A stretch of 64,000 nucleotides of DNA from an uncultured delta proteobacterium (lineage in GTDB: Bacteria; Myxococcota_A; Polyangia; Fen-1088): the NCBI GenBank assembly GCA_963767925.1, contig CAVYGB010000006.1:256001-320000 (forward strand), read 5' to 3'. The translations under genes and the position numbers were made by a program. Shown piece after piece: positions 1 to 32,425 of this stretch (position 1 is the stretch's first letter; every line of letters starts with the position of its first letter). The notes under the pieces are model-generated. The model did no database searches. It was not told the origin of the DNA and saw only the letters and a program-made list of their open reading frames with translations.

Positions 1-1412
1 GCTCTTCCACGAGCCGCTGGAAGGGCAACTCCGCGTGGTTGAAGGCGTCGACCATGGTCCGACGCACGCGCTTTATCACCTCGATGAAAGTCGGATCACC
101 CGAGAGGTTCGTGCGGAGCACCAGCTCGTTGACGAAGCACCCGATGAGCCGGGCGGTCTCGGAGCGATCCCGATTCGCGAAGTCCGTTCCCACCAGCAAG
201 TCCCGCCGTCCCGTGCGAACGTGCAGCATGACGTTGAAGGCGGCGAACAGCGTCATGAACAGGGTGGCTTGCTCGGCTCGGGCCAGGTCGCGTACCCGTT
301 CAAACATCCGGCGGTCGACCAGCACCTTCTCGACCGCACCGTTCGCCGTGCGAATCTTCGGGCGCGGCTTTTCGAGTGAAACCTCGAGGGTGAAAGGAGC
401 CCCTGCCAGCTTGCGCTTCCAGTATTCGACCTCGGCGGCGACAGCGGCAGGCGTCAGCGTCCGGACCTGCCACTCGGCGTAGTCGGCGTACTGTACCGTC
501 AAGCCCGGGAGCAGGGAGGTGTCACCCTTGCTCGCGAACAGCACCCCCAGCTCTTCCAGAAAGACACCCACCGACCATTCGTCCCCGATGATGTGATGCA
601 GGGTGAGCAGAAGAAGCCGCTCGTCCGGCGCGGTACGAAAGCTGTTGATCCGCAGCAGCGGACCGGACGTCAGATCGAAGGGCCGCACCGCCTCGGCCAC
701 GAGGGCGGCCATCACCGCCTCATCGCGCTCCGACGGCGGTACCTCCTCAAAGCTCCGTTCGGCGATGGCGATCTCCCGGCTCGGGGCGATGATCTGCAGC
801 GGACCGGCCGGGCCCTCCACGAAATTGGTCCGGAGGATCTCGTGGCGGGCGATGATGGCGTTGACACATGCCTGCAGCCGCTGCAGATCCAGGGGCCCGG
901 TTGCGCATACGCCGGTGGCGATGTTGTGGGTGCCCGACCCAGGCGCCAGCTTCTCCATGAACCACAGGCCGCGCTGGGCGTACGAGAGCTCGGCGGTCAC
1001 CGCCCCCTCGACCGACGGGGCCAGCAGCCGCTCGAGCAGCAGCCTGCGTTGAGGCCCGGTGAGGACCGGCACACGCTCCCGCAGCCGGGCGAGGCTTGCC
1101 GTCCCGTCCGCCCTGAGGAGGTGACCGAGCTCGGCGGTCACCTGGTCATCCCCGAGCGACGCCACGCGGGCGCGATGCAGGTCTCGTGCGTCTACCCGCG
1201 GGCGGGCCTGGATCTTGGGTCGAGCGCCCCCTGCTCCTCCGTCCAGCTCCTGCAACCGCCGGAGCAGGGTCTCCTTCTGACCGCGCGTCAACCGGGACAG
1301 TCGATTCTTGCAGTCCGGAGAGCTGGGGGAGGTCGACGAGGATCTGGGCGATCCGGACGTCGAGATCCCCGTCCTTCGGCGGCCCGGCGACGGCTTCGCT
1401 CGAAGCACTCAT
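1..1412 (-). CDS. NRPS (partial, continues off left edge): N-terminal docking-like region plus LCL-type condensation domain; apparent +1 frameshift near 1310
   Basis: Hand translation of the minus strand below ~1308 gives ELSYAQRGLWFMEKL...IIARHEILRTNF...LLLTLHHIIGDEWSVGVFLEEL...ELPFQRLVEE, open to base 1. The ATG at 1412 overlaps the upstream TGA (ATGA) but is in another frame (ORF 1146..1412). Confidence 0.85.
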
Positions 1413-3322
1413 CCCGCCGCCTTGGCGCTGAGCACGTCGGCCAGCAAGGAGTCGACGTCGGCGTCTGTCATCTGGTTGCCCTTGTCGGTCGCCCCACCCG
1501 GTGCTCCTGGCTGGAGCGGCTGGGCGCCGTCGTTCGCCGGCTCGGCCCGACGCCTCTCCTCTATCACGCGAACCACCTGCTCCACGGCGGGAAACTCGAA
1601 CAAGGTTGCCAGCGGCAGCTCCACCTCGAAATGAGTGGAGAGGCGGGCGAGGAGGCTCATCGCCAGCAAGGAGTGTCCCCCCATGCGGAAGAAGTCCTCG
1701 TTCACGCCTATCGAGTCCCGCCCCAGCACCTCGGCGAAGATGCGGGCCGCGTCCGCTTCAGCCCGGTTGCGGGGGCTGATGGGATCGACGTTGCTGCTCG
1801 TCTGCTCTGGCGCGGGGAGGGACTTCCGGTCGATCTTCCCCGTCGCGGTGCGAGGCAGCCAGTCGAGCTCGACGAAGGCGGAGGGGACGAGGTGGTCGGG
1901 CAAGCTGGCCGAGATGGCCTGGCGTACCTTCTCGATCGACCCCTCCTCGCTGGGCACGAGGTAGGCGCACAGGAAGGCGCTGCCCTGGCGGTCGGCGCGT
2001 CCCACCGCCGCCACCTCCTTCACCAGCCCCGTCGCGAGAATGGCGCTCTCGATCTCGCCGAGCTCCACCCGCACGCCGCGGATCTTGACTTGCTGGTCGC
2101 GGCGTCCGATGAACTCCAGGCTGCCATCTTCGAGCACCCGCCCGAGATCGCCCGTCCGGTAGACGATGTCGTCGGGTTCGTCGCCCAAGGGATTGGGCAC
2201 GAACACCTGTTCGGTCAACTCGGGGTTGTTGAAGTACCCCAGGGTGGCAAAGTCGGTCTTGATGTAGATCTCACCTACCGTCCCCTGCTCGGCGGGACCT
2301 CCCGCATCGTCCAGGACGAGCACGCTGGCTCCCGGCATGGCTCGACCGATCGGGACCGAACGGCGAACCCCGTCCTCGGGCCGGACCCGATGAAACAGCT
2401 TCACCATGGTGGTTTCGGTTGGCCCGTAGAGGTTCACGAGCCGGACGCGATCTCCGAACACCTGCGTCCAGCGCTGGACGTCGCTGGGCAGCAGGGGCTC
2501 GCCTGCCAGGGCGACGTGGCGAAGGGCCGGAAACAGGTCCGGGCGGAGAGGCTCCGCCAGGATGGTGCGAAAGAGCGAGGGAACCGCGTGCACGATCTCG
2601 ATCCGGGTCCCGTCGAGCCAGGCGACGAGGCGCCTGGGATCGAGTACGGTTTCGCGGCTCTCCGGAACGCACATGGTCCCACCGGCACACAGCGCCGTGA
2701 AGGTGTCGCGCAGGAATGCGTCGAACACGAAGGAGGTGAGCTGGGATACCCGGGTCCCTGGCCCCACGGCGAGCGCCTCCATCTCCCAGCGGACGAAGTG
2801 GTCGATGCTCTTGAGCCGGCCAGCGATCGCCTTCGGCCGGCCAGTAGAACCCGAGGTAAAGTAGACGTAACACATGTCCTCCGGCTCCGAGACGCCGGGA
2901 GGCGACTGCTCCGACCCGCGGGCGGCGCTCAGCTCGATGCCAACCACGGGCACGTCGCTCCTCCCCACCTTCTCGTGGACCGCTGCCCGCAGAGGCTCAG
3001 CGGCCAGAACGAAGGCGGGGGCGACCTGGGCGGTGAGGGCCCGGATCCGTGCCGCTGGTTGCTGGAGGTCGACGGGAACGAACACCGCGCCGATCTTGAG
3101 CGTGGCGAGCATCGAGGCCACCGCCGAGGGCGTGTTTGCCGCGGCCACGTATACGAGGGCGCCTTTGCGGGCTCCTCGGTCCAGGAGATCGTTTCCCAGC
3201 TGGTTCGACCACAGGTCGAGCTGCCGGTAGCTGAGCTCCTGCTGTCCGCTCAGGATGGCCGCCCGGTCGGGGTGGGCGAGGGCCGCCCGCTGGAACATCT
3301 CATGCACAAATGGTAGCCGCAT
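1409..3322 (-). CDS. Stand-alone NRPS A-T didomain (no C domain); code DARHAALMVK, probably (D-)Asp-type
   Basis: YVYFTSGSTGRPK, NLYGPTETT, YRTGDLG, QVKIRGVRVELGEIE; PCP FFRMGGHSLLA; C-terminal docking-like MTDADVDSLLADVL. Code hand-read by alignment to GrsA. Confidence 0.92.
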   Translation of the reverse strand: MRLPFVHEMFQRAALAHPDRAAILSGQQELSYRQLDLWSNQLGNDLLDRGARKGALVYVAAANTPSAVASMLATLKIGAVFVPVDLQQPAARIRALTAQVAPAFVLAAEPLRAAVHEKVGRSDVPVVGIELSAARGSEQSPPGVSEPEDMCYVYFTSGSTGRPKAIAGRLKSIDHFVRWEMEALAVGPGTRVSQLTSFVFDAFLRDTFTALCAGGTMCVPESRETVLDPRRLVAWLDGTRIEIVHAVPSLFRTILAEPLRPDLFPALRHVALAGEPLLPSDVQRWTQVFGDRVRLVNLYGPTETTMVKLFHRVRPEDGVRRSVPIGRAMPGASVLVLDDAGGPAEQGTVGEIYIKTDFATLGYFNNPELTEQVFVPNPLGDEPDDIVYRTGDLGRVLEDGSLEFIGRRDQQVKIRGVRVELGEIESAILATGLVKEVAAVGRADRQGSAFLCAYLVPSEEGSIEKVRQAISASLPDHLVPSAFVELDWLPRTATGKIDRKSLPAPEQTSSNVDPISPRNRAEADAARIFAEVLGRDSIGVNEDFFRMGGHSLLAMSLLARLSTHFEVELPLATLFEFPAVEQVVRVIEERRRAEPANDGAQPLQPGAPGGATDKGNQMTDADVDSLLADVLSAKAAG

Positions 3323-4031
3323 TCTCTTCCTCCGCGGTTCGCCGAGCTATGGCAGACAAAGGATCGATGACCTCGAACTGCTGATTGAGGGCCGTCAGAC
3401 CGGCGCTCTCCCGAGAGAGCAGGTGAAGCTCCGTGCAGCCGGCGATGATTCCTCGCACCTGGTGCCGCACCGCAAGCTCCTGCACGACCCGTTCGAGCAC
3501 CTCCGTCTGGTGCTCGCGCTTGACCCGATAGATGGCCTGGTGCAGGCGCTCCTGCTCTTCCTCCGAGAGCTCGGCGATCCGCTCGCGGGAGCGGCGCCAG
3601 GCCGGATGATCGTGGAACAACCTCAGCTTCCTGGCGCCCGTGGTGCAAGCCAGCAGCACCCGCTGGTCGAACCGCAGCAACTCTTCGAAGACTGTGTCGA
3701 CCAGGGAGACCACCCGCCGGCGCAGGTCCGCCCTCACCAGGGGCAACAGGTGGTGCATGGTGACGCAGCAGATCACGACCTGTTCGGCCCCCTGGGCGAG
3801 CAGGCTTCCGATGCCTCCCTCCAGATCACGAAGCAGCGGCCGGTGATCGCCTCCGTTGAGGAACGTCGCCGTGCGATCCCCGATCTTGGGGTTCGAGTTG
3901 AGCAAGACGATCGGCGAGTCCTGCTCGATGCGGCCCCGGTACATCCCGTAGATGGTTCGTACGAACGCGGCCGACGCCAGCGGCCCCATGCCGCCGAGCA
4001 CGCCTATGGGCGACACCTGTGATTGCCTCAT
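3300..4031 (-). CDS. Aspartate/glutamate racemase (McyF-like)
   Basis: GVLGGMGPLAS, DRT, ICCVTMH and AGCTELHLL (both catalytic Cys), C-terminal IDPLSAIA. Confidence 0.9.
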   Translation of the reverse strand: MRQSQVSPIGVLGGMGPLASAAFVRTIYGMYRGRIEQDSPIVLLNSNPKIGDRTATFLNGGDHRPLLRDLEGGIGSLLAQGAEQVVICCVTMHHLLPLVRADLRRRVVSLVDTVFEELLRFDQRVLLACTTGARKLRLFHDHPAWRRSRERIAELSEEEQERLHQAIYRVKREHQTEVLERVVQELAVRHQVRGIIAGCTELHLLSRESAGLTALNQQFEVIDPLSAIARRTAEEENAATICA

Positions 4032-4049: not shown

Positions 4050-5030
4050 CTACTGGCCGGTCATCGCCACGAGCACCTTGCGGTCGCCCTTGAAAGGCAT
4101 CCGACCGTGGGCCACCAGCATGTTGTCCACCATCAGAAAGTCTCCGGGGCGCCAGGGGAAGCGAGTCATCTGCGCGCGGGTGGTCTCGCGGATGGCGGCC
4201 AGGTCCTCGATCGGTATCTTGCCGCCGTCACCAAAGAAGGCGTTCTGGGGAAAGAGCTCCTCCCGTCCCTGGTAAAGAACGAGCATCGACTCGTAGATCG
4301 CCCGAGGGTGGGTCGACGGATGAAATTGATCGGCCTGGTTGAACCAGACCTCCTCCCCGGTCAGCGGATGAAGTGCGGTAGCCGGACGGACAGAGGACAG
4401 GCGAACCGCCCCTTCGGCCAGCCACTCGAGCGTCATCCCAGAGGCCCGGGCGTAATGCTCGATGTCCGACCGCGCTTCTGTCTGGAAGGTCTTCTGCCAG
4501 GAGGGTCCGAACCCCTTGCCCCCATGCATGTGACGGACGTAGCGGACACCTCTGCTCCGGAACCTCTCGAGGAGCGGCGCCGGCAGCGCCTTCAGCAAAC
4601 CCCGGCTGTCCACCAGCGGCGTCTCTCCGCCCTCTGGCGGCGCCTGGACGCAGCAGAAGAACAGCCGGCGGGGCCAGGAGCCCGAGTAGGAGAGCTCGTT
4701 GTGCAGAGAGATGAAGTAGCTGGCGGGGTATTCGGTCGACGTGTAGACGCCGGCCCCCACCTTGGTGCGGGGCGAGTTGCCGTCGACGTAGTCCAGGGTC
4801 TCCCGCTTGAGGTCAGCCATCACCTGCCCGAAGACCTCCGCCTCGCCCACCTGGAAGCCCCGGAACAGGATCGCCCCGTGCTGGTACAGACACGGGTCGA
4901 GACGCTCATCCTCCCGGAACAGTCGCAGGAGACTCTCGCGACCGTCAGGACGGTTGGCGCCGTCCAGCTCGATGACGAAGGGAAGTGCGCGCGCTGGCGT
5001 CGCCTGCTTCGCCGCCTGGAGCATCGTCAT
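4050..5030 (-). CDS. Stand-alone Fe(II)/2-oxoglutarate TauD/SyrP-family aminoacyl beta-hydroxylase
   Basis: GAILFRGF, YTSTEYP, LHNELSY (HxE), GGETP, WFNQA, DNMLVAHGRMPFKGDRKVLVAM. Confidence 0.92.
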   Translation of the reverse strand: MTMLQAAKQATPARALPFVIELDGANRPDGRESLLRLFREDERLDPCLYQHGAILFRGFQVGEAEVFGQVMADLKRETLDYVDGNSPRTKVGAGVYTSTEYPASYFISLHNELSYSGSWPRRLFFCCVQAPPEGGETPLVDSRGLLKALPAPLLERFRSRGVRYVRHMHGGKGFGPSWQKTFQTEARSDIEHYARASGMTLEWLAEGAVRLSSVRPATALHPLTGEEVWFNQADQFHPSTHPRAIYESMLVLYQGREELFPQNAFFGDGGKIPIEDLAAIRETTRAQMTRFPWRPGDFLMVDNMLVAHGRMPFKGDRKVLVAMTGQ

Positions 5031-5033
5031 GAC

Positions 5034-6902
5034 CTAGGCGAGCTCCGGCATGGAGAAGATCTCCTGAAAGAGCCCGAAGGTCGCGACCACCATCAGCCAG
5101 TCGCTCTCGAAGGGCTGCTTCAGCCGGAAGTTTGGCGCGGAGTACTGGCGCTTGAGCGTCTCGATGAAACCAGGGTCGAAGTAGCCCTGCCGACGGATGG
5201 TGGCCGGCGACAACATGTCATGGATCCACTCGACTCCCTGTTGCAGCATCTCCGGGCTTCCGGGGGCGTACCAGCCGAACTTCTCCCGGCGCTGGATGGC
5301 CTCGGGGAGCACGTCCTTGCCCATCCGCCGCAGGAGATACTTCTCGGTATAGCCACGCAGCTTCAGGTTCGGAGGAATCTTCCGGGCGTATTCGATGAAT
5401 CCGATGTCGAGGAAGGGGTATCGAGCTTCGACGGAGTTTGCCAGTGCCATCGCGTCCCCGTGATCCATGAGGAGGTGGTCGGCCATCCTGAGCTTGAAGT
5501 CGAGGTAGGATCGCTGGTGCACCGGGTGGCGGCCCACGATCCGATCCTTCCGGACCAGGGGGTGTTGCAGGCAGTTGAACTGAGGAAAGGCGCCTTGCAC
5601 CTCCCGGGAGTAGAGCAGTGGCCGCCGCTGCTGGTCGTCGTAGTAGTCGAGCTCGTAGTGGACGTTGGCGTCACCCCAGAGCGCCTCCCGCATCCTCTCC
5701 TCGACCAGCTCGCCGGGTTGGGCGTTGCCCAGGGCCCGTTCGGTCCGGGCCCGGTCGAATCGATAGCCAACGTAGCCGGCGAAGAGCTCATCTGCCCCTT
5801 CTCCGGTCAAGATGACCTTTATCCCCTCCGCCCGGGCGGCCCGCGAGAGCTCCATGGAGCAGGTGTTGTAGGTCTCCTTTACCGGACACTCGGCGTGATA
5901 GATCATGGGTCGCATCAGACTGGCCGCCCGGTTCCAGTCGAAGCGCGCGCTGTGCAACTGGCAACCCACCTGGTCGGCCATGAGCTGCTGGAATCGCTGC
6001 TCGTCGGCGCGCTGGTCGGCGAAGGTGATCGAGAAGGCGTGGCGGCCAAGGCCTGGCTCGATCTGGCTGATGAAGGCGGCCGTGAGCGATGAGTCCAGCC
6101 CCCCGCTAAGATAGAAGCCGACCGGCACGTCGGCCTGCAGGCGATAACGAACCGAGCGGGTGAATGCCTCGGTCAAGCCCTCGAGATACTTCTCCTCGGG
6201 TTCATCGGGCTGATCGGCCGCCGCGGGGTAGTCCAGGTCCCAGTACTCGTGATCCTGGACTCCCTGGGCGTCGACAAGCAGGTAGTGTCCGGGAGCGAGC
6301 CGCTGAATCCCCTTGAAGACGGTGCGCGGGCTGACCAGCCCCGGAAAGGTCAGGATCTGGTCGAGGCCGGTCAGGTCCACCTCCCGCGAAACCGCGGGGT
6401 GCTTCAAGATGGCCTTTATCTCCGAGCCGAACACGAAGGTCCCCTTGGCGGTCGTGAAATGCAGGGGCGCGATGCCGACGTGATCGCGGGCCAACATCAA
6501 CCGCCGCCGGGTGCGATCCAGCAGGGCAAAAGCGAACTGTCCGTTGAGCTTTCGCACCATCTCGGGTCCGTGCTCTTCATAGAGATGGACCAGCACCTCC
6601 ACGTCGCACTGGCTGCGGAACCTGTGACCGCGGGCCTCCAGCTCCGCGCGCAGCTCCTTGTAGTTGTAGATCTCGCCGTTACAGACCACGGCCACCGACT
6701 CGTCTTCATTGAACAGCGGCTGGTCGCCGGTGGTCAGGTCGATGATGGCCAGACGACGAAAGCCCAGGGCCACGTAGGTGTCCTGAAAGGACCCGTCCGC
6801 GTCAGGCCCGCGATGTCGGAGGGTCTCGGCCATCCGTCCGATCAAGGAGGGGTCGGATCGAGCACCGGTGCCCATATCGAAGTATCCAGCAATTCCGCAC
6901 AT
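5034..6902 (-). CDS. asnB: Asparagine synthetase (glutamine-hydrolysing)-family amidotransferase
   Basis: Start reassigned to ATG 6902 giving MCGIAG (Ntn Cys2); RHRGPD, RRLAIID, NGEIYN, LSGGLDSS, TGEGADELFAGY, EARYPFLD. Confidence 0.93.
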   Translation of the reverse strand: MCGIAGYFDMGTGARSDPSLIGRMAETLRHRGPDADGSFQDTYVALGFRRLAIIDLTTGDQPLFNEDESVAVVCNGEIYNYKELRAELEARGHRFRSQCDVEVLVHLYEEHGPEMVRKLNGQFAFALLDRTRRRLMLARDHVGIAPLHFTTAKGTFVFGSEIKAILKHPAVSREVDLTGLDQILTFPGLVSPRTVFKGIQRLAPGHYLLVDAQGVQDHEYWDLDYPAAADQPDEPEEKYLEGLTEAFTRSVRYRLQADVPVGFYLSGGLDSSLTAAFISQIEPGLGRHAFSITFADQRADEQRFQQLMADQVGCQLHSARFDWNRAASLMRPMIYHAECPVKETYNTCSMELSRAARAEGIKVILTGEGADELFAGYVGYRFDRARTERALGNAQPGELVEERMREALWGDANVHYELDYYDDQQRRPLLYSREVQGAFPQFNCLQHPLVRKDRIVGRHPVHQRSYLDFKLRMADHLLMDHGDAMALANSVEARYPFLDIGFIEYARKIPPNLKLRGYTEKYLLRRMGKDVLPEAIQRREKFGWYAPGSPEMLQQGVEWIHDMLSPATIRRQGYFDPGFIETLKRQYSAPNFRLKQPFESDWLMVVATFGLFQEIFSMPELA

Positions 6903-6919: not shown

Positions 6920-7471
6920 TCAGACGGCGATGGCCCGGCGGAGCTCCGCCCCTTGCCGGCAGAGGTCGGGGAGCAGCTCGAGTTGCTCCGCTTTCACTTC
7001 CGCTGCCACCGCCCGCTGAAGCATGGTCACCGAAACGATCACCCGGAGCCGCTCCCGAGTCGCGAGCAGGACCCCCTCGAGACCGGCGAGCGGGCCGGCG
7101 ATCACCCGCACCCGCTGGCCGACCCGCAGGGAGGCGGGCTCGGCGGGTACGCCCAGCTCGACGATCCGGCGAACCGCCTCCACCTCCGCCTCGGGGACGG
7201 CGAGGGGAGCATTGTTGACGCCCAGCAAGCGAATAACGCCGTTGACCTGGATTATCCGGTGAGGGTTGTCTTTGGCGTAACGGCAGAACAGATATCCCGG
7301 AAACAGCGGCAGGCGGGCTCGCTCGTTCCCGAGGGCGCCGCGCGGGCGGTACAGCGGCAGGAACTGTTCGTAGCCATGGCGGCTGAGCTGTGTGGCGACG
7401 ACCCTTTCGTAGTTGGTGCGGACCAGAACCGCTATCCAATCACCTTCGCGGCAGCTACGTGAATTCAGCAT
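6920..7471 (-). CDS. NusG/RfaH-family transcription antiterminator paralogue (UpxY/LoaP/TaA-like), ~183 aa
   Basis: NGN domain WIAVLVRTNYE...FLPLY...PLFPGYLFCR...GVIRLLG; KOW GQRVRVIAGPLAGLEG. ATG 7471 preferred because the longer ORF extension lies in the conserved leader. Not in secE/rplK context. Confidence 0.9.
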   Translation of the reverse strand: MLNSRSCREGDWIAVLVRTNYERVVATQLSRHGYEQFLPLYRPRGALGNERARLPLFPGYLFCRYAKDNPHRIIQVNGVIRLLGVNNAPLAVPEAEVEAVRRIVELGVPAEPASLRVGQRVRVIAGPLAGLEGVLLATRERLRVIVSVTMLQRAVAAEVKAEQLELLPDLCRQGAELRRAIAV

Positions 7472-7534
7472 GTCTTTCCCCACTGTTTCTCCGAGGAGTC
7501 TCGCCGCAGCCCTCTCCTCCGCCTGAGTCAGGAA

Positions 7535-22971: not shown

Positions 22972-25900
22972 GGCTTGCTCTCGCGCAAGAGCCGCCGCAC
23001 GTCCCCGTCGCCGCGGGTCAACCGGCGGATGCTGCCCAGGGGCGCCGCCTGACCGGCGCTCGCTTCGATCGCCTCGGCGACCGCCGCCACCGTCGGGGAG
23101 TCGAACAGCTGCCGCAAGGGCAGATCCACGCCGAAGCGGGCCTCGAGGCGCGCGCGGACCGTGACCATCAGCAGCGAGTGCGCGCCGAGAGTGAAGAGGT
23201 CCTCGTCGGGGCCAACCGCGGCTATGCCCAGGGCGTCGGCCCAGATGCGACCCACCTCGGCCTCGGTCGCGTTGCGGGCCGGTCGACGCGTGTCCAGCTC
23301 CCCGGTCGGCGCCGGCAAGGCGGCGCGATCGACCTTCCCGTTGGGCGTGCGGGGCAAACGCTCCAGCACCACGATCCGGGCCGGCTCCATGTGGCGGGGC
23401 AGCCGGGCCCTGAGATGACTCTGCAGATCCTGGGGGGAGACAGACTGGTCCGGTCGGAGGGCCACGTAGGCCACCAGCCGGCGATCCGCGGCGCCGCCAG
23501 CCAGGACAGCCACGCTCTCCCCGACCGCCGGGTGGGCGGCCAGCACCGAGGAGACCTCCCTGAGCTCGATCCGGAAGCCCCGGATCTTGACCTGGTCGTC
23601 CTCGCGACCGAGGAACTCGAGCCGGCCATCCCGGCGCCAGCGCACGCGGTCTCCAGTCCGGTATACCCGCTCGCCCGGCTCCTGGGCGAGCGGGTCGGGG
23701 ACGTAGCTCGCCGCCGTCAGGCCGGGCCGGCGCCAGTAGCCCCGCGAGACGCCGGGGCCTCCGATGTAGAGCTCACCCGCCACACCGACTGGCACGAGCT
23801 GCTGTCCTGGATCGAGCACCCGCAGGGTGGTGGCGCCAAGCCCCACTCCGATCGTGACGGGCTCGCCTCGCCGGAGGGTGGTCCAGGTCGAATAGGTGGT
23901 GGTTTCAGTGGGCCCATAGAGGTTGTTGACCCGCAGCTCGGACGATCCGGCCCGATACAGGCCTTCGACAAGGGTCGCGTCCAGGGGCTCGCCGGCCAGA
24001 TTGATGGCTCTCAGGTCAGGCGGCAGCCAGCCGGCGCTCGCCACCGCCGCCATCGCCGAAGGGACTGTGTTGATCAGGCGCACCGCCTCGACCGAACCTC
24101 CCTCGCGCTGCCCCTCCCACCATTGCAGCAGGTTCTCGGCGAGGACCACCGCGCCGCCGCTGCAAAGTGGCGCCCACAGCTCGAAGATGGACAGGTCGAA
24201 GCAGGCCGAGGTGGAGGCGAGGACACGCTCGAGCTCGGCCGGCCCGAACGCTCCCGTCGCCCACTGCACGAAGGCGTCAGCCTGACGGTGCTCGATCATC
24301 ACGCCCTTCGGGACACCGGTCGAGCCAGAGGTGTAGATCAGATAGGCAACGTTCGCCGGGCCGACCGACGACTCGGCTGCCTCTTCAGATTCGCCCGGCG
24401 CGACGCCGACGAGGCCCTCGGCGTCCAGGGTGATGACCCGACTGGCACCGCCGTCGAACCGTCCCGTCCAGCGTGGCTCGGTGATGATGGCGAGCGCCGC
24501 GGCGTCGCTGGCCATGAAACGCAGCCGCTCTTCCGGATAGTCCGGGTCCAGGGGCAGGTAGGCAGCCCCCGCCTTCCAGACCGCCAGCATCGCCTCTACC
24601 ATCCGCCCGGACCGGGAGAGGCAGATCCCGACCCGCTCTTCCGGACCCACGCCAAGGGCCCGGAGCTGGCGGGCGAGGCGGTTGGCCCGACGATCCAGCT
24701 CTCGATAGCTGATCGACTCTCTGCCGTCGAGCAGGGCCGGACGTTCGGGCGTCTCCCGGGCCTGTCGTTCGAAGCGGTGATGCAGGCACACGCAGGCCGG
24801 AGGACGAGCGGCGGGCGCCTGGAAGCTCAGGATCGTGGCCCGGGCGGCTTCGGACAGGATGGGAAGATCGAGGATCGGCCGGTGGGGATCTTCGGCGATC
24901 GACCGGAGCAGGACCTGAAGACATTCCGCCCAGCCGGCCACGGTTTCGGGCGCGAGCAGATCGCTGCGATAACGCAGGCGTCCTCCCAGGCCTTCCTCCA
25001 CCTCGCCGAGGGCGAGGCTGAGGTCGAACTGGGCAGTCCGCTCGGGCAGAGCGACCGACTCGAGCGCCAGCTCTCCCACCTGGAGCTTCGCGCCGCCCAT
25101 CCCCAGAGCCAGCCGGGCCATCCCCCAGCCGTCGCGCTCCGCCTGCTGGGCCTTGTGAAAGGTGAAGCTGGCCTGGATGGGAGCACGGTTACTCGCCCCG
25201 CGTGAGAGCTGGCTGGCCTTCACCATCAGCGGGAAGGGGTAGGCGGCGTGTTCCATCCCGCTCAGCACCCGTGCCCGGACCTGCCCGAGGAGCTCGTTGA
25301 AGGTCGTCACCCCCGCGAAATCGACCCCCAGCGGCAACATGTTCACGAAGTAGCCGATCACGTCGGCAAACTCCGCCCGCGGTCGGCCGGAGCTAGGCGT
25401 GCCCACGACGAAGCGCGCCTGGCCGGTCAGGCGGTGCAGCAGGGCCAGCCAGGCCGCCGCTGTCACCATGAACAGCGTGGCCCCGTTCTTCGTGGCCACC
25501 TCCTGCAGGCGCTCCCGGACCTCCAGGTCGACGATGAAGTCCAGGCTGGCCCCGGCAGCGGCCTCCTCCCGGGAACGCGGGTTGTCGAGCGGCAAATCGA
25601 GCTGTGGCCACTCCTGGCCCAGCTCGCCCTTCCAGTAGGTCGCCAGACGGTCGCCCTCGCTGCCGGCCAGCAGGTCCTCCTGCCAGGCCACGAACTCGGC
25701 GTAGCCGTCCCGGGCCGCCTCGACGTCCAGGCGCAGGTTCAGCCCGAGCGCGGTGTAGATCGTGCCCAGCTCCCGCAGCAGCAGCACCAGCGACCAGAGG
25801 TCGGCGACGATGTGGTGGATCACGAACAGCAGGAGGTGTTCCTCCTCGGAGCGACGGTAATGCGTCACCTGCAACAGCGGCCCCTCCGCCAGGTCGATCG

Positions 25901-28181
25901 GCCGATGGGCGTCCTCTTCGAGGGTCCGGGCCAGCTCCACCTCGCTCAGCGCCTCGACGGGAAGGAAACGCACGACCCGGGGGTCGTTGCGCCGAAGCAC
26001 CCTGACCGCCTCCCCGCGGGCGACGGGGAAGCTGCTGCGCAAGGCAGGATGGCGCTCGAGCAGCAGCTCCAGGGCCCTCCGCAGGCGATCGCGATCGAGC
26101 ACACCTCGCAGGCGCACGACCCGCGCGATGTTGTTGCTCGCTCCTTCCGGATCGAGTTGCTGCAGGAACCACAGGGCTCGCTGGCCGTGCGAGAGCCCGC
26201 CACCGCCCGAAGAACTGGGCGGCGGGCGCCCCGCGCCGATCCGCCGGGCGGTGTCGGCCAGGCTCAAGCGTTCGAACAGCAGCGAGGGCTCGATCGCCAG
26301 GCCAAACTGCTTCTCGAGCCCGTGGGCGATCTCGATGGCCGCCAGGGAGTCGAGGCCGTAAGCCGTGATGGGCTGCTGGGGGTCCACCGACGCCGGCGGC
26401 AGACCCGCTCGCCGAGCCACCTCCGCCCGCAGCCAGGCGCCGACGGCGTCCTGGTCCCCCGGCGAGGGGGTGGCAGTCGAACGGCCAACGACCGAGAGCG
26501 TCCCGTCGAGGAAGGCTCGCCGGCACTGACTCCGCTGGATCTTTCCACTCGAGGTCTTCGGGATCGACCCCTTGCGGATGAGCACGACCTCGTGGGCCGC
26601 CAGCTCGTGGCTCGCGGCCAGGGCCTGCCGGATCGCGGCCTCGATCTCGTTGCCGTCGACCCCGCTCCCTCGGTCCACCTCCGCCACCACGACCAGCCGT
26701 TCCTCCCGCTCGATCTCGACTGACACCGCCGCCACGCAGCCCGGTCGCAACAGGGGATGGCTCCGCTCGACGCTGACCTCGATGTCCTGCGGGTAGTGGT
26801 TCTGGCCACGCAAGACGAGGAGATCTTTGCAGCGGCCCGTGATGACGAGCGATCCGTCTTCGAGGAAGCCGAGGTCGCCGGTCCGCAGGAAGGGGCCCCT
26901 GCCGCTCCCCGAGAGAAAGGACTGAAAGGTGAGGGCCGACTCCTCTGGCCGGTTCCAGTAGCCGACGGCCACGCTGCCCCCCTTCACCCAGATCTCGCCC
27001 ACCTCACCCGGGCCACGCTCCGACCCGGTCTCCGGATCGACGATGACCACCTCCTGCTCGCCGAGAGGTCGCCCACAGCCCACGAGGCTGGCGGCGTCCG
27101 CCGCCGCCTCTCGCCGCACCAGCCGGTGCTCCCCGAGCGCGTGCTTGTCGACGTGCAGGACGAGCGGGGATCGGGCTTTGTGGCTCCCCGTGACCATGAG
27201 GGTGGCCTCGGCCAGGCCGTAGCAGGGGTAGAAGGCCTCGGCGCGAAAGCCACAATCGGCGAAGACCTCGGCAAAACGGGTCAGGGTGTGCGCGCGCACC
27301 GGCTCGGCCCCGTTGAAGGCGACCGTCCAGCTCGACAGATCGAGCCCCGCCCGCTCGGCCGGGGAGATCTTCTCCAGGCAGAGCTCGTAGGCGAAGTTGG
27401 GCCCGCCGCTGGTGGTGGCCCGATAGCGGGAGATAGCCTGCAACCAGCGGAGGGGCCGCTTGAGGAAGGCGGAGGGCGCGATCTGGACACAGGGGATGCC
27501 AGCAAAGAGCGGCTGCAGCAGACCGGCCATGAAGCCCATGTCGTGGAAGGTGGGCAGCCAGGACACGTAGCTGTCGCCCGCGCCATGCTCCACCGCCGCG
27601 TGGACCAGGGCCGCGTTGTGCAAGAGGTTGGCGTGGGTGAGCATCACCCCTTTCGGGGTGCCGGTTGAGCCCGAGGTGTACTGCAGGAAGGCTACTTCGT
27701 CCGGCGGCCCGCCCGGCAGGCGCTCCTGGGCCTCGGGCACGACATCGGTGGCGATCCAGGTGAAGCGTCCAAGATCGAGCCCCTGCTCCATGAACCCCGC
27801 CTGGATCCGCTCGACCAGCGCGGCGGTGGTGAGCACGCAGGTGGGCTGGGCGTCGGCCATGATCGCGACGAGGCGGCTCAGCGTGCGGGTGCTGGTAGGC
27901 GGATAGGCGGGCACGGCGATGACTCTGGCGTGCAGGCAGCCGAAGAAGCCGACCAGGAAGTCGAGCCCCGCAGGGTAGAGCAACACCGCGCGGGCGCCGG
28001 GGTTTGCCCGATCTCGCAAAGCTGCCGCCACCGAGAGGGCGCGGCGGCGCAGCAGGGCGTAGTCGAGGCTCATCTCCTCGCGATCGCCGTCGGGCAAGAA
28101 GGTGAAGGCCTCCCCGACCGGGGACGTCTCGGCCCGGAGATCGAGCAGGTCGGTCAGGGTATCTGGCTGAGATGAACGCAT
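22968..28181 (-). CDS. Lipo-initiation NRPS: FAAL-ACP-C-A(Ala-type, code DLFNNALTYK)-T
   Basis: Start reassigned to MRSSQPD (28181, purine-rich SD). FAAL: LQYTSGSTG, SWLPTFHDMG, NGAEPV, CYGLAEATL. ACP YGLDSL; C HHIVADLWS; A FDLSIFE, NLAGE, GPTETTTYST; PCP LGAHSL. Confidence 0.95.
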   Translation of the reverse strand: MRSSQPDTLTDLLDLRAETSPVGEAFTFLPDGDREEMSLDYALLRRRALSVAAALRDRANPGARAVLLYPAGLDFLVGFFGCLHARVIAVPAYPPTSTRTLSRLVAIMADAQPTCVLTTAALVERIQAGFMEQGLDLGRFTWIATDVVPEAQERLPGGPPDEVAFLQYTSGSTGTPKGVMLTHANLLHNAALVHAAVEHGAGDSYVSWLPTFHDMGFMAGLLQPLFAGIPCVQIAPSAFLKRPLRWLQAISRYRATTSGGPNFAYELCLEKISPAERAGLDLSSWTVAFNGAEPVRAHTLTRFAEVFADCGFRAEAFYPCYGLAEATLMVTGSHKARSPLVLHVDKHALGEHRLVRREAAADAASLVGCGRPLGEQEVVIVDPETGSERGPGEVGEIWVKGGSVAVGYWNRPEESALTFQSFLSGSGRGPFLRTGDLGFLEDGSLVITGRCKDLLVLRGQNHYPQDIEVSVERSHPLLRPGCVAAVSVEIEREERLVVVAEVDRGSGVDGNEIEAAIRQALAASHELAAHEVVLIRKGSIPKTSSGKIQRSQCRRAFLDGTLSVVGRSTATPSPGDQDAVGAWLRAEVARRAGLPPASVDPQQPITAYGLDSLAAIEIAHGLEKQFGLAIEPSLLFERLSLADTARRIGAGRPPPSSSGGGGLSHGQRALWFLQQLDPEGASNNIARVVRLRGVLDRDRLRRALELLLERHPALRSSFPVARGEAVRVLRRNDPRVVRFLPVEALSEVELARTLEEDAHRPIDLAEGPLLQVTHYRRSEEEHLLLFVIHHIVADLWSLVLLLRELGTIYTALGLNLRLDVEAARDGYAEFVAWQEDLLAGSEGDRLATYWKGELGQEWPQLDLPLDNPRSREEAAAGASLDFIVDLEVRERLQEVATKNGATLFMVTAAAWLALLHRLTGQARFVVGTPSSGRPRAEFADVIGYFVNMLPLGVDFAGVTTFNELLGQVRARVLSGMEHAAYPFPLMVKASQLSRGASNRAPIQASFTFHKAQQAERDGWGMARLALGMGGAKLQVGELALESVALPERTAQFDLSLALGEVEEGLGGRLRYRSDLLAPETVAGWAECLQVLLRSIAEDPHRPILDLPILSEAARATILSFQAPAARPPACVCLHHRFERQARETPERPALLDGRESISYRELDRRANRLARQLRALGVGPEERVGICLSRSGRMVEAMLAVWKAGAAYLPLDPDYPEERLRFMASDAAALAIITEPRWTGRFDGGASRVITLDAEGLVGVAPGESEEAAESSVGPANVAYLIYTSGSTGVPKGVMIEHRQADAFVQWATGAFGPAELERVLASTSACFDLSIFELWAPLCSGGAVVLAENLLQWWEGQREGGSVEAVRLINTVPSAMAAVASAGWLPPDLRAINLAGEPLDATLVEGLYRAGSSELRVNNLYGPTETTTYSTWTTLRRGEPVTIGVGLGATTLRVLDPGQQLVPVGVAGELYIGGPGVSRGYWRRPGLTAASYVPDPLAQEPGERVYRTGDRVRWRRDGRLEFLGREDDQVKIRGFRIELREVSSVLAAHPAVGESVAVLAGGAADRRLVAYVALRPDQSVSPQDLQSHLRARLPRHMEPARIVVLERLPRTPNGKVDRAALPAPTGELDTRRPARNATEAEVGRIWADALGIAAVGPDEDLFTLGAHSLLMVTVRARLEARFGVDLPLRQLFDSPTVAAVAEAIEASAGQAAPLGSIRRLTRGDGDVRRLLRESKP

Positions 28182-28990
28182 CGCTCTTCTTCCTCGGGGC
28201 GGGCGCCACGTTGACTGCCGATGGCCGCGCGCAACTCGGCCGCTACCAACGCCAGCAGCTCGGTCCGACTCGTGTTGACGAAGAAATGGCCACCGGGCAA
28301 AAGGTGCAGACGGAAGGCACCGTTGCCGTGTTCCCGCCACGCCTCGAGCTCGGGGGGGTCGATCCCCCCGTCCGAGAGCCCGCCAAAGGCGGTGATGGGG
28401 CAGCTCAAGGGGGCCTCCTCGAGATAGGCGTAGCGCTCGACCGCCTGGAGGTCTGCTCGTAGCAGCGGCGTCATCACCTCCATGAGCGCGGCGTTCTGCA
28501 GCACCTCGGCCGGCGTGCCCTGCATGCTCGCCAGGGCAGCGACAAAGTCCGCCTCGGGGAGCAGGTGAAGCTCCGGGCGCCGGCGGGGCCGGTGCGGCGC
28601 CCGGTGGCCCGACACCATGACCTGGACCGGTGCTTTCCCTTCCTCACGCCGCCAGCGCCTGGCCAGTTCGAAGGCGACGATCGCCCCCATGCTGTGGCCA
28701 AAGAAGGCGACTGGCCCCGACAGGAACGGTCGCAATCCAACCCACAGATCGTCGATCAAGGCTCCGATGTCCCGGTGAGCCGGCTCGCGAAGGCGCGCAC
28801 CCCGCCCGGCCAGCTCGACGGCCAGGACGTCGACGCCCGCCGATAGCCCGGCGGACCAGGCTCGAAACAGGTGGGCCATGCCCCCGGCGTGAGGAAAGCA
28901 GAAGAGCCGCAGGCGTCCGGCAGGCGCGGTCGCCATCGGATCGATCCTCGTCTGGGGCAGATATCGGGAGAAGAACCGGGGGAGGGTCAT
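28154..28990 (-). CDS. Type II (editing) thioesterase
   Basis: LFCFPHAGG, FGHSMG, LLRADL, PGGHFF. Confidence 0.95.
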   Translation of the reverse strand: MTLPRFFSRYLPQTRIDPMATAPAGRLRLFCFPHAGGMAHLFRAWSAGLSAGVDVLAVELAGRGARLREPAHRDIGALIDDLWVGLRPFLSGPVAFFGHSMGAIVAFELARRWRREEGKAPVQVMVSGHRAPHRPRRRPELHLLPEADFVAALASMQGTPAEVLQNAALMEVMTPLLRADLQAVERYAYLEEAPLSCPITAFGGLSDGGIDPPELEAWREHGNGAFRLHLLPGGHFFVNTSRTELLALVAAELRAAIGSQRGARPEEEERCVHLSQIP

Positions 28991-29038: not shown

Positions 29039-30766
29039 TCAGACGCTGTTGAGGGCGGGGGCCCGCACCAGCTCGTCCCACTCGACGCGTCCGCGTTCCA
29101 GCTTGATCACCCGATCCGCGACGTCGAAGTAGCGATCGTCGTGGGTGATCACGAGGACGGTCTTGTTTCGGTCGCGAAGCTCGGGGAGCAACTTGTGGTA
29201 AAAAACCTGGCGGAAGCTGGGATCCTGGTCCGCGGCCCACTCGTCGAACACGTAGATCGGACGATCCTCGAGGGTGGCCAGCACGAGGGCCAGCCGCTTG
29301 CGCTGGCCCTGTGACACCTCGAGGGTAGAGAAGCGGCGGTTGACGAGCTTCACCTTTTCCCCGAGCTGCAAACGATCGAGCTGGGCCCGGCCATCGACCT
29401 CGAGTCGCTCCTCGACTGGACCCACCAGCCGGTTGAACAGATGGTAGTCGGCGAAGATGCCGGAGAAGTGCTGACGGTACTCATCACGGTTGGCGCTCGT
29501 GACCGGGACACCGTCGAGGCGGATCTCCCCCGCGTGAGGCTCGTAGAGGCCGGTCAGGAGCTTGGCGAGGGTGGTCTTTCCGCTGCCGTTGCCGCCGACG
29601 ATGAACACCATCTGTCCAGCGTAGAAGCTCAGGTCCAGCGGGCCGACGGCGAAGCTCTCGCTGCTGGGCTCACTCTGATAGACGTGTCGGACACCGAGGA
29701 GCTGAAGCTGACGCCAGGGACGCGGCGATCGGGCTCGGGCGGACGGCTCCAGGGGCGAGCTCGTCAGCGACAGACCCAGGGCACGTACCTTCTCTGCCGC
29801 CACGAACGCCCGGCTGAAGCTGGGCAGGTTGTTGAGGATGATGGTGAGCGGCGTGATCATGAACAAGATGGTCAGGGCGTAGCCGGTTATGGATGCTCGA
29901 TCGATGGCCAGGACCGCGGGGGAGGCGAAGAGGATTAACCCGATGAAGAGGAAGAAAAGGATCTGCCCCCAATTGCCCGCGGCCAGGGCGTAGGTGTTGG
30001 CCAGGACCGCCCTTCGCCGGATGGCCTCGACGGGCGGCTCCAGCTCCTCTTGCAAGAACAGCCGGCGGCGCTCTCGGTTGAGCTTGAGCTCCTTGGCCCC
30101 CTCGGTCAGGCCACGAAAGGCCGCAAACATCCGATCCCACTCCTCGCGCAGTCGCCGGAAGTGGCCGAGCGACTTCCGCGCCGGGACGGCGTGGGTGAGG
30201 ATGCCGAAGGCCATGAAGGCGAGCACCGCCAGCAGCAGAGGGCGAGACAACCAGCCCAGGTAGGCGAGACAGCCGGCCATGATCCCGAGCTGCATGAGCA
30301 CCACGGGCAGGGCGGTTATCGCCGACGTGACGCTTCCGATGTCGTCGGTGAAGGTGGCCAGTAGCCGGGCCGCCCCGATGTCCTCGAGCAAGCGATACGG
30401 CGCGTCCAGGACCTGTCGAGCCATCCGCAACCGGAGCTCCTTGGCCGCCCGCGAGGTCAGCCGGACCAGCAGGACTTGCGAGCCGAACCCGGCCAGGGGA
30501 ACGAGCAGGCAGAGGACGGCGAACATCCCGGCCAGCGGGTGATGGCGCGAGCTGTCCAGGCCGGCCCCCAGGACGGCGTTGATCACGGCCACCAGCGCCG
30601 TGCTGCCCAGCCCCGCGAGGAGCCCGCTCAGGGTGGCCAGGATCACCGTGAGACGGGCGAACCGGGTCCCCTGCGACCAGCGCAACAGCACCGAGATGAG
30701 GCGACCTAGGCTTTGCAAGGACGACTCCTTGTTCGCGCTGGACGAACGTTCCACAGCATGTTCCAA
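29039..30766 (-). CDS. Cyclic peptide export ABC transporter (SyrD/PvdE/YojI family)
   Basis: Fused TM domain and NBD; GGNGSGKT, SQGQRKRLAL, FDEWAADQDP, ITHDDRYF. Confidence 0.95.
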   Translation of the reverse strand: MEHAVERSSSANKESSLQSLGRLISVLLRWSQGTRFARLTVILATLSGLLAGLGSTALVAVINAVLGAGLDSSRHHPLAGMFAVLCLLVPLAGFGSQVLLVRLTSRAAKELRLRMARQVLDAPYRLLEDIGAARLLATFTDDIGSVTSAITALPVVLMQLGIMAGCLAYLGWLSRPLLLAVLAFMAFGILTHAVPARKSLGHFRRLREEWDRMFAAFRGLTEGAKELKLNRERRRLFLQEELEPPVEAIRRRAVLANTYALAAGNWGQILFFLFIGLILFASPAVLAIDRASITGYALTILFMITPLTIILNNLPSFSRAFVAAEKVRALGLSLTSSPLEPSARARSPRPWRQLQLLGVRHVYQSEPSSESFAVGPLDLSFYAGQMVFIVGGNGSGKTTLAKLLTGLYEPHAGEIRLDGVPVTSANRDEYRQHFSGIFADYHLFNRLVGPVEERLEVDGRAQLDRLQLGEKVKLVNRRFSTLEVSQGQRKRLALVLATLEDRPIYVFDEWAADQDPSFRQVFYHKLLPELRDRNKTVLVITHDDRYFDVADRVIKLERGRVEWDELVRAPALNSV

Positions 30767-30779: not shown

Positions 30780-31025
30780 TCAGCGGTCGAGGCCTGTCTT
30801 CTCCTCGACGAGCTGGCGGCGCACGCTGAGCGGCCGCATGTCGGTCCAGGTCTCTTCGATGAAGGCCAGGCACTCGGATCTCGTTCCCGTCTTGCCAGCG
30901 GGTCGCCAGCCCAGGGGCAGCGGCCGGGCGGCCGGCCAGATCGAATATTGCTCTTCCAGGTTCATCACGGCCTGGTAGGGGGTCGTTTCGTCGTCAGGCT
31001 GGCTCATCGTGCTCTCGTCCTTCAT
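30780..31025 (-). CDS. mbtH: MbtH-like protein
   Basis: [10 protein letters not shown]...PLGW...[16 protein letters not shown]. Confidence 0.97.
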
Positions 31026-32425
31026 TGGCTGGCGCGCAGCTCCCGGCTGGCTCGGATGGCTCCCCTCCGGACGGCGACGATGGTCTGCTTCTCGTCGGCG
31101 AGGACGGAGGCGATCACGTCGCGGAAACGCTGGATCAGCCGGCTGACCGTCGCTGCCTCGAAGACCCGGCTGTCGTAAACCGAGCGAAGCAGCAACCTCG
31201 GCCCGGGCTCGATGACCAGCATCAGCGGATAGCTGTTCCGCTCGATCGAGCTGGCGGCGACGATGCGGGGCGACCCCATGCTGGCCAGGGCCGCGTTCAC
31301 TGGATAGTTCTGGAAGACGACCACGCTGGAAAAAAGCGGCGTGCCCCGGGGAACCTCGCTGCTCTGCTGGATGTCCGGCAGCGACATGTATTCGTAGCGA
31401 CGGGCCTCGGCCTGCTGGACTTGCAGCTCCTGCAGCCAGGGCACCACCGGGGCATCCATCTCGATGCGCGCGCGAACCGGCAAGTTGTTGATGAACAGGC
31501 CCACCATGCTCTCCATCCCAGGCAGCTCCACGGGGCGTCCGGCGACGACATTCCCGAAGACGACGTCATCGACTCCGCTCTGCTGGGCCAGATGGAGGGC
31601 CCAGGCACCGAGAATCACTGTATGAGTGGTCACCCGGTGCTTGCGCGCGAAGGCCTTCAGCGCGGCCGTCTCGCCCTCCTGCAGCGATACCTCCTGCTGG
31701 CGGTACACGTCCTCGGTAGGGGTGGCCGGGACAACCTGGTCCTCTCCGATGGAGGTCGGCGCGACGAACCCCTGCAGCGTCTTGCGCCAGTACTCACGAC
31801 CCCGCACCCGGTCCTGACGTTCGAGCCAGTCGATGTACCGTCTGAACGGCAGGGGCTGCTTGAGCCGGAGCGCCTGGCCCCGGGCCAACGCCCCGTAGAT
31901 GGCGATGACCTCGGCGAGGACGACCGCCACCGACCAGCCGTCGAGCAGGGTGAGGTGGTAACGCCAGATGAACTGGTAACGGTCGGGCCCGCACTTGATG
32001 AAGGTGGCCTCGACCAGAGGCGGACTCGAGAGATCGAAGTCCCGGTGTCGCCCTCGCTGCAGCAGCTCCTCGAGCCGCTGTTCCTGATCGGCCCGGCTGA
32101 GGTCCGACCAGTCATATTCCTGCCAGGGGAGCGCCACCCTCCGTAGCACCATCTGCCGCGGTTTGCCCTGCTCATCGGTCACGAAGCCGGTGCGCAGGAT
32201 CTGGTGCCGGCCGATCACCTGCTCGAAGGACTGTCGAAACGCGGAGGCGTCGACTTCTCCCTCCAGGGCGTAGCTCTGCTGGTTGATATAGGCCCCGGAA
32301 TTGGGGGCATTGAGACTGTAGAACAGCATCCCTTCTTGCAAGGGAGTGACGACGTAAACGTCCTCGATCCGTTCGTCAACCAGCGGCTGCGGCTTGAGCA
32401 GGGCTGGTTTCGAGTTGAGTCTCAT
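31022..32425 (-). CDS. Stand-alone condensation domain (DCL-like) with atypical active site HLTLLDG
   Basis: Start reassigned to MRLNSK (32425). [67 protein letters not shown]. No A or T domain. Confidence 0.9.

Follow-up and report, generated by a model that had tools for sequence, protein, structure and literature searches.

Sequence analysis of an open-ended lipopeptide gene cluster from an uncultured delta proteobacterium points to a myxoglucamide-type glutamate cassette in a new context

The stretch of DNA analysed here (64,000 nucleotides; hereafter the window) corresponds to positions 256,001 to 320,000 of contig CAVYGB010000006.1 (GenBank assembly GCA_963767925.1), which originates from an uncultured delta proteobacterium. 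Between window positions 2 and 32425, it harbours 15 closely spaced genes of a hybrid nonribosomal peptide synthetase-polyketide synthase (NRPS-PKS) cluster, all located on the minus strand and transcribed from 32425 towards 1 (Table 1). The cluster is open at the left window edge, where its last gene, g14, is interrupted. These are probably the first 15 genes of a lipopeptide assembly line, in which a glutamate cassette with the architecture MxgA(C-Ox)/MxgB/MxgC of the myxoglucamide (mxg) pathway yields a Glu-derived unsaturated gamma-amino acid, followed by a downstream set composed of a McyF-like racemase, a TauD-type dioxygenase, an AsnB-type amidotransferase, and an adenylation-thiolation (A4-T) didomain. 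Intergenic spacing across the cluster ranges from -23 to +255 bases, and the reading frames of g3 to g7 overlap by 4 to 8 bases, a pattern expected of a translationally coupled operon. The generic features of type I modular NRPS-PKS lipopeptide systems were all found, namely a fatty acyl-AMP ligase-acyl carrier protein (FAAL-ACP) loading unit, condensation-adenylation-thiolation (C-A-T) modules with intact core motifs, a ketosynthase-acyltransferase-carrier protein (KS-AT-CP) unit with its active-site Cys and His residues, a GHSxG motif in the AT domain, and an MbtH partner.

Table 1. Genes of the NRPS-PKS cluster, in the direction of transcription (window coordinates; aa, amino acids)
Gene	Product or domain organization	Coordinates	Strand	Evidence
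g1	Free-standing condensation-like protein, 467 aa	31022..32425	-	PF00668, 296 bits
mbtH-like	MbtH-like protein, 81 aa	30780..31025	-	PF03621, 74 bits (cut-off 27)
g2	Fused permease/ATPase ABC exporter	29039..30766	-	TIGR01194 cyclic peptide export ABC transporter, 449.7 bits (cut-off 286.2); ABC_membrane and ABC_tran
g3	Discrete, type II-like thioesterase	28154..28990	-	PF00975, 155.8 bits
g4	FAAL-ACP-C-A1(DLFNNALTYK)-T	22968..28181	-	Pfam; NF004509 fatty-acid--AMP ligase, 521.8 bits; HHIVADL
g5	C-A2(DAWFLGNVVK)-T-C-Ox	17326..22971	-	Pfam Condensation (two), AMP-binding, PP-binding, TauD
g6	Interface-type C-like domain-A3(DAKDLGVVDK)-T	14123..17329	-	Weak Condensation match, then A-T
g7	KS-AT(malonyl)-KR-DH(LGP)-carrier protein, 1837 aa	8617..14130	-	Pfam and motifs
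g8	ABC transporter ATP-binding protein, no adjoining permease	7722..8456	-	PF00005, 105 bits
g9	NusG/RfaH/UpxY-like transcription antiterminator paralogue	6920..7669	-	PF02357, 50 bits, aa 77-166
g10	AsnB-type glutamine-dependent amidotransferase	5034..6902	-	TIGR01536, 466.8 bits (cut-off 267.1); Asn_synthase and GATase_7
g11	Stand-alone TauD-family Fe(II)/alpha-ketoglutarate dioxygenase	4050..5030	-	PF02668, 143.5 bits; PDB relatives 1y0z and 9yut
g12	Asp/Glu-type amino-acid racemase, McyF-like	3300..4031	-	PF01177, 90.8 bits; TIGR00035, 93.4 bits (cut-off 93.1)
g13	A4(DARHAALMVK)-T didomain without C domain	1409..3322	-	Pfam AMP-binding, AMP-binding_C, PP-binding
g14	N-terminal region of 138 aa and C domain (HHIIGDE), cut at window edge	2..1408	-	PF00668, 235 bits, profile positions 5-336 of 456

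Domains were assigned with Pfam and NCBIfam, and the Pfam E-values of the cluster domains (1e-13 to 1e-173) are such that chance matches are of no concern. The adenylation codes were derived from an alignment of the four A domains through the conserved landmark motifs A4, A5, and A10; a one-residue alignment gap makes position 278 ambiguous by one residue in the domains A1, A3, and A4. An initial annotation, made from the nucleotide sequence alone, had listed a FAAL-ACP start, a malonyl PKS module, two hydroxylases, a racemase, and an amidotransferase, all of which were recovered at the same positions by means of Pfam, NCBIfam, and the HAFH motif of the AT domain; independent alignment also returned its four adenylation codes, apart from the ambiguity at position 278. 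Both hydroxylases do exist, but one of them is a domain of g5 and not a separate gene. Similarly, its statement that the cluster is incomplete for lack of a terminal thioesterase (TE) or reductase agrees with the open end of the cluster and with the lack of a fused TE in the window, but passes over the discrete thioesterase encoded by g3. The ketoreductase (KR) and dehydratase (DH) domains of g7, the interface (I) domain of g6, g1, the mbtH-like gene, the two ABC transporter genes, and the NusG/RfaH-like gene had not been reported in it.

The loading unit and the first two amino acid modules are encoded by g4 and g5. The g4 open reading frame (ORF) spans positions 22968-28340, with the ATG at 28181 as likely start codon, and the code of its A1 domain was read as DLF(N/T)NALTYK, which presumably specifies Ala. 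The A2 code of g5, DAWFLGNVVK, is supported in print as a Leu code by the accessible part of one study (PMC12283262), the supplement of which contains none of the A codes of the window. Both C domains of g5 carry the HHxxxDG motif, the second one as HHIVADG, and the latter is directly followed by a TauD-type alpha-ketoglutarate (alpha-KG) dioxygenase (Ox) domain that ends the protein (aa 1567-1864 of 1881, approximately positions 17380-18273; PF02668, 152.4 bits). A C-terminal match to C and Ox as one stretch was found in five of the 150 representatives listed as relatives of this region, a list in which giant NRPSs with numerous C domains predominate. The next protein, g6, starts with a domain of which the Condensation match (60 bits) covers profile positions 6-323 of 456 only; it is devoid of HHxxxDG and has LPALCAD at the position of this motif. 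The code of the A3 domain behind it was read as DAK(D/C)LGVVDK, which we take to be the classic Glu code.

The third component of the cassette is the PKS module encoded by g7, for which the ATG at 14130 was taken as start codon within an ORF spanning 8617-14298. Its AT domain contains the motifs GHSIG and HAFH, and its KR domain (aa 1187-1382; motif YCAAN) is found ahead of the DH domain (aa 1406-1688). The latter keeps HxxxGxxxxP (as HRIVGSAVMP) and the catalytic-motif Asp, and contains LGPRW, i.e. LGP in place of Y/FGP; numbered from the ATG at 14130, the residues concerned are H1381, L1513, and D1555. As both the KR and DH motifs are intact, at least reduction and dehydration are to be expected from this module. 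The protein terminates 26 aa past its carrier domain, with neither an epimerization (E) domain nor a release domain.

A characterized precedent for this gene order was published in August 2026 by Wang and colleagues (Angew. Chem.; PMC13638107), namely the mxg cluster of Cystobacterineae sp. MCy9003. According to the accessible part of its description, it encodes MxgA (FAAL-ACP-C-Ox, with Ox being an alpha-KG dioxygenase), MxgB (I-A-peptidyl carrier protein (PCP), with an I domain devoid of HHxxxDG), MxgC, in which an E domain comes after a PKS module containing KR and DH domains, MxgD (DCL-A(Abu)-PCP-TE), and MxgE, a flavin mononucleotide (FMN) monooxygenase fused to a C domain that has HPxxxD as its motif. 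The discrete protein MxgH is a C-like O-acyltransferase whose HH motif is intact, and a cytochrome P450 together with a glycosyltransferase provides for the glucosylated hydroxy-fatty acid. In the same account, L-Glu is loaded by MxgB and hydroxylated at C3, while carrier-bound, by the Ox domain of MxgA; hydroxylation and condensation are interdependent, and the I domain can be omitted in vitro. The DH domain of MxgC is described there with H1396, D1558, and an LGP variant, L1516, that is required for production. Finally, a vinyl group is proposed to arise through a decarboxylative dehydration brought about by the C domain of MxgE, whose Ox domain would oxidize the alpha carbon. Beta-hydroxy-Glu acts in this pathway as a cryptic intermediate, which reduction, dehydration, and lastly decarboxylation turn into a vinyl gamma-amino acid (PMC13638107).

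The window shares with this system a FAAL-ACP start, a C domain with a fused alpha-KG dioxygenase that ends an NRPS, and, as next protein, an I-A-PCP protein with an I domain devoid of HHxxxDG (g6, with a presumably Glu-type A domain, and MxgB). Similarly, g7 and MxgC both display the order KS-AT-KR-DH-CP with an LGP-type DH domain, and their residues are numbered almost alike (H1381/L1513/D1555 versus H1396/L1516/D1558, the latter as reported in the accessible part of PMC13638107). Both systems further possess a C-like protein devoid of the second His; this protein is free-standing with HLxxxDG in the window (g1), in contrast to the HPxxxD of MxgE and the intact HH of MxgH. The host is probably myxobacterial, as in the case of mxg. 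Other differences are that full Ala and Leu modules (A1 and A2) are inserted between FAAL-ACP and C-Ox in the window, whereas C-Ox directly follows FAAL-ACP in mxg; that g7 lacks the E domain of MxgC; and that g10 to g13 (racemase, TauD, AsnB, and A-T) have no counterpart in mxg. Hence, the likeness is confined to the glutamate cassette and the locus is not the myxoglucamide cluster itself; it is an uncharacterized lipopeptide line that probably reuses a myxoglucamide-type glutamate cassette in a new context, with a product that is only partly predictable.

Based on domain order, assembly would start with the loading of a fatty acid by the FAAL-ACP part of g4, after which Ala would be acylated via the starter C domain of the same protein and Leu would be added by g5. 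The last C domain of g5 would then couple acyl-Ala-Leu to the Glu held by g6, with the fused dioxygenase hydroxylating C3 in step, and g7 would append one malonate, reduce the former Glu carbonyl, and dehydrate the product to an unsaturated gamma-amino acid. The C3 hydroxyl and the C5 carboxyl groups may subsequently be converted into a vinyl group, as in the myxoglucamides, with g1 or genes beyond the window as candidate partners. With an equivalent of the MxgE C domain, a vinyl gamma-amino acid that is not alpha-oxidized would result; without it, a hydroxy-dicarboxylic or, via g10, amidated unit would be kept. The chain would proceed through g14 beyond the window.

The start codon of g1 (position 32425) marks the right end of the cluster. 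Alignment revealed that HLTLLDG replaces HHxxxDG in this protein, the second His being a Leu. Among its 120 listed relatives (own protein included), 16 contain [H/Y]L and 90 contain HH at this position, and all nine nearest non-self relatives, which are 458-473 aa long, 53-60% identical, and of metagenomic origin, contain [H/Y]LxxxDG. This indicates that the replacement is a feature conserved within a small free-standing subfamily and not a sign of decay. As g1 too lacks the second His, it is a candidate for a vinyl-forming role like that of the MxgE C domain; alternatively, it may catalyse condensation onto g13 in trans or, like MxgH, an acyl transfer.

Downstream of the cassette, the genes g10 to g13 suggest an amino acid supply. 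The g10 ORF spans positions 5034-7439 and its protein begins with MCGIAG; with this Met-Cys start, it has the nucleophilic Cys residue of a functional glutamine amidotransferase. The stand-alone dioxygenase g11 is a paralogue of the Ox domain of g5 (42% identity). The best PDB match of g12 was McyF (5wxx; 114.8 bits, E-value 3.7e-32), followed by an aspartate racemase with 63.2 bits. McyF is the racemase that serves the supply of D-Asp/D-MeAsp in microcystin synthesis; in the window, its relative g12 is encoded beside A4, and nothing else in the cluster is related to microcystin synthetase. The A4 code was read as DAR(H/A)AALMVK, with Asp235, Arg239, and His278. Its first four residues are presumably those of the MeAsp-activating A domain of microcystin synthesis too, and we take Arg239 and His278 to be typical for A domains of iso-linked acidic D-amino acids, both of which could not be verified in print. 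In the accessible part of a published code collection (PMC12283262), the code DPRHLALLAK is assigned to a unit "AMA" under a heading that names alpha-aminoadipic acid, and DPRHVSLLAK to Asn. Taken as a whole, the gene content suggests that the g10-g13 set most likely supplies a modified (hydroxylated, perhaps amidated) acidic D-amino acid, which is possibly linked through its side-chain carboxyl group.

Relatives of the cassette proteins were retrieved in large numbers. For the KR-DH-CP region of g7, 3384 of the 8000 candidates scored matched at E <= 0.001, and the best non-self identity was 60%, as it was for g1. LGPRW was found in 96 of the 120 listed g7 relatives (the protein of the window included), and KR preceded DH in all 98 listed relatives in which the patterns located both. 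According to Pfam, these relatives occur as KS-AT-KR-DH-CP alone (about 1860-1930 aa), like g7; with an additional luciferase-like FMN monooxygenase (about 2220-2380 aa); with both this monooxygenase and a C domain (about 2750-2800 aa); or, in the layout of MxgC, with a domain of the C/E type (about 2310-2350 aa). Many of them originate from metagenome-assembled genomes (MAGs) of Pyrinomonadaceae and Blastocatellia. Proteins fused to the FMN monooxygenase and the C domain look like a fused MxgC and MxgE. The abundance of matches, many with a fused FMN oxygenase, indicates that the logic of the cassette is probably widespread in uncultured bacteria and mostly unexplored.

A separate observation concerns the g7 relatives P0194 to P0312, in which the LGP module is often fused to an FMN monooxygenase and a C domain with HAxxxDG, largely in MAGs of Acidobacteriota.

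For g6, the codes of 72 listed relatives of the I domain, read by pairwise alignment, comprised DAKDLGVVDK exactly in four cases (own protein included) and two codes that differ from it by one to two residues. Three of these relatives (P0025, P0029, and P0036) are I-A-T proteins of about 1080 aa with a Glu-type code identical to that of g6 and with the PALCAD motif in common. For P0036 and P0237, the latter a KS-AT-KR-DH(LGP)-CP protein, the longest contig given is 43853 bases in both cases, a hint that the cassette may recur on one contig. No Mxg-named protein was present among the listed matches of the g6 I domain, g1, or g7. When the C domain of g14 was compared with one genome per species, 37 loci were found (best identity 44%, in a Chloroflexi MAG); a tblastn search with 15 domains of the window retrieved the same gene set in none of these loci, which are relatives of the g14 C domain only.

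Several of the results weigh against the reading of g5 to g7 as a myxoglucamide-type cassette in an acyl-Ala-Leu line. The likeness to mxg is one of architecture and of reported residue numbers, not of measured sequence identity. The Glu code of A3 and the Ala code of A1 are presumed assignments, the former not found in the papers searched and the latter not found in print. Relatives of g6 are distant, with 30-37% identity for the closest I domains and 37% for the nearest full-length protein (P0036), and 32 of the 72 listed I-domain relatives have Lys-x-Gly-His/Glu codes. The latter are presumably Asp/Asn-type codes, and several codes of other I-domain relatives are presumably Gln-type, so that the I-domain family as a whole is not Glu-specific. 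Neither an E domain nor an FMN monooxygenase, P450, or glycosyltransferase was detected with Pfam in the cluster (2-32425) and its right flank; moreover, 2-32425 contained no PF00296 or other flavin oxygenase, and the window no DCL-A(Abu)-PCP-TE or fused TE. The C domains with HAxxxDG linked to FMN oxygenases in g7 relatives are only about 24% identical to g1 (47-55 bits), and the other C domains of the window are equally near to them. Given the lack of any special similarity to these oxygenase-linked C domains, g1 as a counterpart of the MxgE C domain was discounted as support. Finally, g13 comes without a C domain, which leaves the place of the A4 unit in the chain unproven.

One competing explanation is a collinear lipopeptide without cryptic chemistry, in which 3-hydroxy-Glu (or Gln) is retained and C2-extended, and a D-Asp derivative comes next, as the initial annotation had assumed. 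The domain order allows it, the window contains neither an FMN oxygenase nor a C domain with HPxxxD or HAxxxDG, and the AsnB-type enzyme could amidate the side-chain carboxylate that is kept. Indeed, the order acyl-Ala-Leu-(C3-hydroxylated Glu plus one malonate) follows from gene order, domains, and codes, and Glu loading, beta-hydroxylation, and C2 extension by the same architecture have an experimental precedent in the accessible account of the myxoglucamide pathway (PMC13638107). The assignment of beta-hydroxy-Glu as a product unit disregarded the KR and DH domains, however, the motifs of which are intact in g7 (YCAAN for KR), so that reduction and dehydration are to be expected; furthermore, in the only characterized pathway with this cassette, as far as described in PMC13638107, the hydroxyl group is lost and beta-hydroxy-Glu is not kept. 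As for the D-Asp derivative, an acidic D-amino acid is plausible in view of the McyF match of g12 (114.8 versus 63.2 bits) and Arg239 of A4, but its collinear placement is unshown, as A4-T comes without a C domain. This collinear reading as a whole is considered unlikely. The accompanying claim that the cluster matches no known product holds for the cluster as a whole but not for its core cassette, which matches that of the myxoglucamide pathway.

An amphiphilic acylated peptide siderophore, in which two beta-hydroxylases make beta-hydroxy acid iron ligands, is an altogether improbable product. The combination of a fused beta-hydroxylase and an interface domain corresponds with the layout of the "siderophore-associated" profiles, as far as described for antiSMASH 8. 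Reportedly, the beta-hydroxylase/interface-domain systems of siderophores set out by Reitz and colleagues (PNAS, 2019), whom antiSMASH 8 cites for these profiles, modify Asp or His, which serves iron binding. They resemble the window in having a C-terminally fused TauD-type hydroxylase and a C-like interface domain without catalytic motif, and the fatty-acyl start, the acidic residues, and the 32 of 72 listed I-domain relatives with presumably Asp-type codes would suit a siderophore too. In contrast, the A3 code is Glu-type instead of Asp-type, a PKS module with an LGP-type DH domain comes next and fits the non-siderophore logic of mxg, and neither a TonB-dependent receptor nor uptake, hydroxamate, or catechol genes were found in 2-32425. 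Even more improbable is the presence of two adjacent pathways, with g1 to g7 making an acyl-Ala-Leu-gamma-amino acid and g10 to g14 a separate peptide with A4-T as loading unit. A4-T indeed has no upstream C domain, and a gap of 160 bases 3' of g7, together with the transport and regulator genes g8 and g9, sets g7 apart from the rest; but all genes are on one strand, tightly spaced, and alike in the G+C content of their third codon positions (GC3; 0.77-0.87), g7 ends in a carrier domain without release domain, and a NusG-like antiterminator inside the array fits a single long transcript.

Among other known systems, the AMB (oxyvinylglycine) pathway of Pseudomonas aeruginosa resembles the cassette of the window, in that carrier-bound Glu is beta-hydroxylated by an alpha-KG dioxygenase and an unusual C domain leads to a vinyl-type amino acid; it differs in its two discrete dioxygenases, its tripeptide precursor, and the lack of a PKS extension, as summarized in the accessible part of PMC13638107. 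The assembly lines of corramycin and vioprolide are myxobacterial NRPS-PKS systems that share the FAAL-ACP-C start with the window, and the fatty acid of which possibly serves as a pro-drug cap that can be removed (PMC10099666, accessible part). They continue with an FkbH/HAD glycerate module, and the accessible part of the same paper (PMC10099666) makes no mention of a dioxygenase, a racemase, or an asparagine synthase. Identity with these lines was ruled out by their FAAL-ACP-C-HAD-T start (PMC10099666, same part). No cluster or product with the module set of the window is described in the open-access literature searched, and searches on beta-hydroxy-Glu lipopeptides and on myxobacterial FAAL/TauD clusters yielded no candidate besides the myxoglucamide system in that literature.

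Extending the preferred reading, the myxoglucamide-type cassette in a lipopeptide line, to a full scaffold is more speculative. Acyl-Ala-Leu would be followed by a Glu-derived vinyl or hydroxy gamma-amino acid, not alpha-oxidized, and by a beta-hydroxylated, amidated D-iso-acidic residue, and the [H/Y]LxxxDG proteins (g1 and about 15 metagenomic relatives) would represent a new class for either decarboxylative dehydration or trans-condensation onto A4-T; as a whole, this proposal is tentative and rather unlikely. The conversion of Glu into a vinyl gamma-amino acid was described as recently as August 2026 and from a single cluster, and the key step that removes water and CO2 is assigned to a C domain only tentatively in the accessible account (PMC13638107). 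The window offers a natural variant of the cassette, positioned behind two ordinary modules, with no FMN oxygenase or epimerase seen and with a differently mutated C-like protein, and its comparison with mxg could reveal which parts serve which step. With respect to natural-product discovery, the cluster is a reasonable, not an exceptional, expression target.

Regarding the remaining genes of the cluster, the start codon of the mbtH-like gene overlaps the stop codon of g1 by 4 bases. The best NCBIfam match of g8 was of the DarD type (242.5 bits, under the cut-off of 375). The score of g9 for the UpxY family NF033644 (81.6 bits) was likewise under its cut-off (100), and its real start is probably downstream of 7669; judging from its position inside the operon, between the ABC ATPase and amidotransferase genes, it may act as a dedicated antiterminator for the long transcript. 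The first 138 aa of g14 had no Pfam match.

The G+C content of the window is about 70%. The GC3 values of 0.77-0.87 apply to every cluster gene, as compared with mostly 0.93-0.97 right of 32.7 kb, where two ORFs have values of 0.85-0.88. This step between 2-32425 and 32696-64000 is located at the divergent intergenic region 32426-32704 and suggests horizontal acquisition of the cluster. The right flank encodes, according to Pfam, AsmA/DUF748, Lgt, a LigD primase-polymerase, Ser/Thr kinases, a hybrid histidine kinase, and peptidases. Look-alikes of the Lgt protein, as identified by a language model, were most frequent in Myxococcota, and the host looks like a Gram-negative bacterium, probably a myxobacterium, that gained the cluster horizontally. 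An Rfam search across the whole window returned no RNA family. In the same flank, 38349-39650 (minus strand) codes for a 433-aa protein in which, besides the LigD primase-polymerase domain, neither a ligase nor a nuclease domain was reported, and 52877-54115 (plus strand) contains three successive small ORFs of 150, 110, and 150 aa (GC3 0.93-0.97) without Pfam match. Furthermore, the ORFs 44794-47058 (plus strand) and 44830-46227 (minus strand) overlap over a long distance on opposite strands, both with a coding-like GC3; of these two, 44830-46227 is the one with a Pfam match (Peptidase_M16_C).

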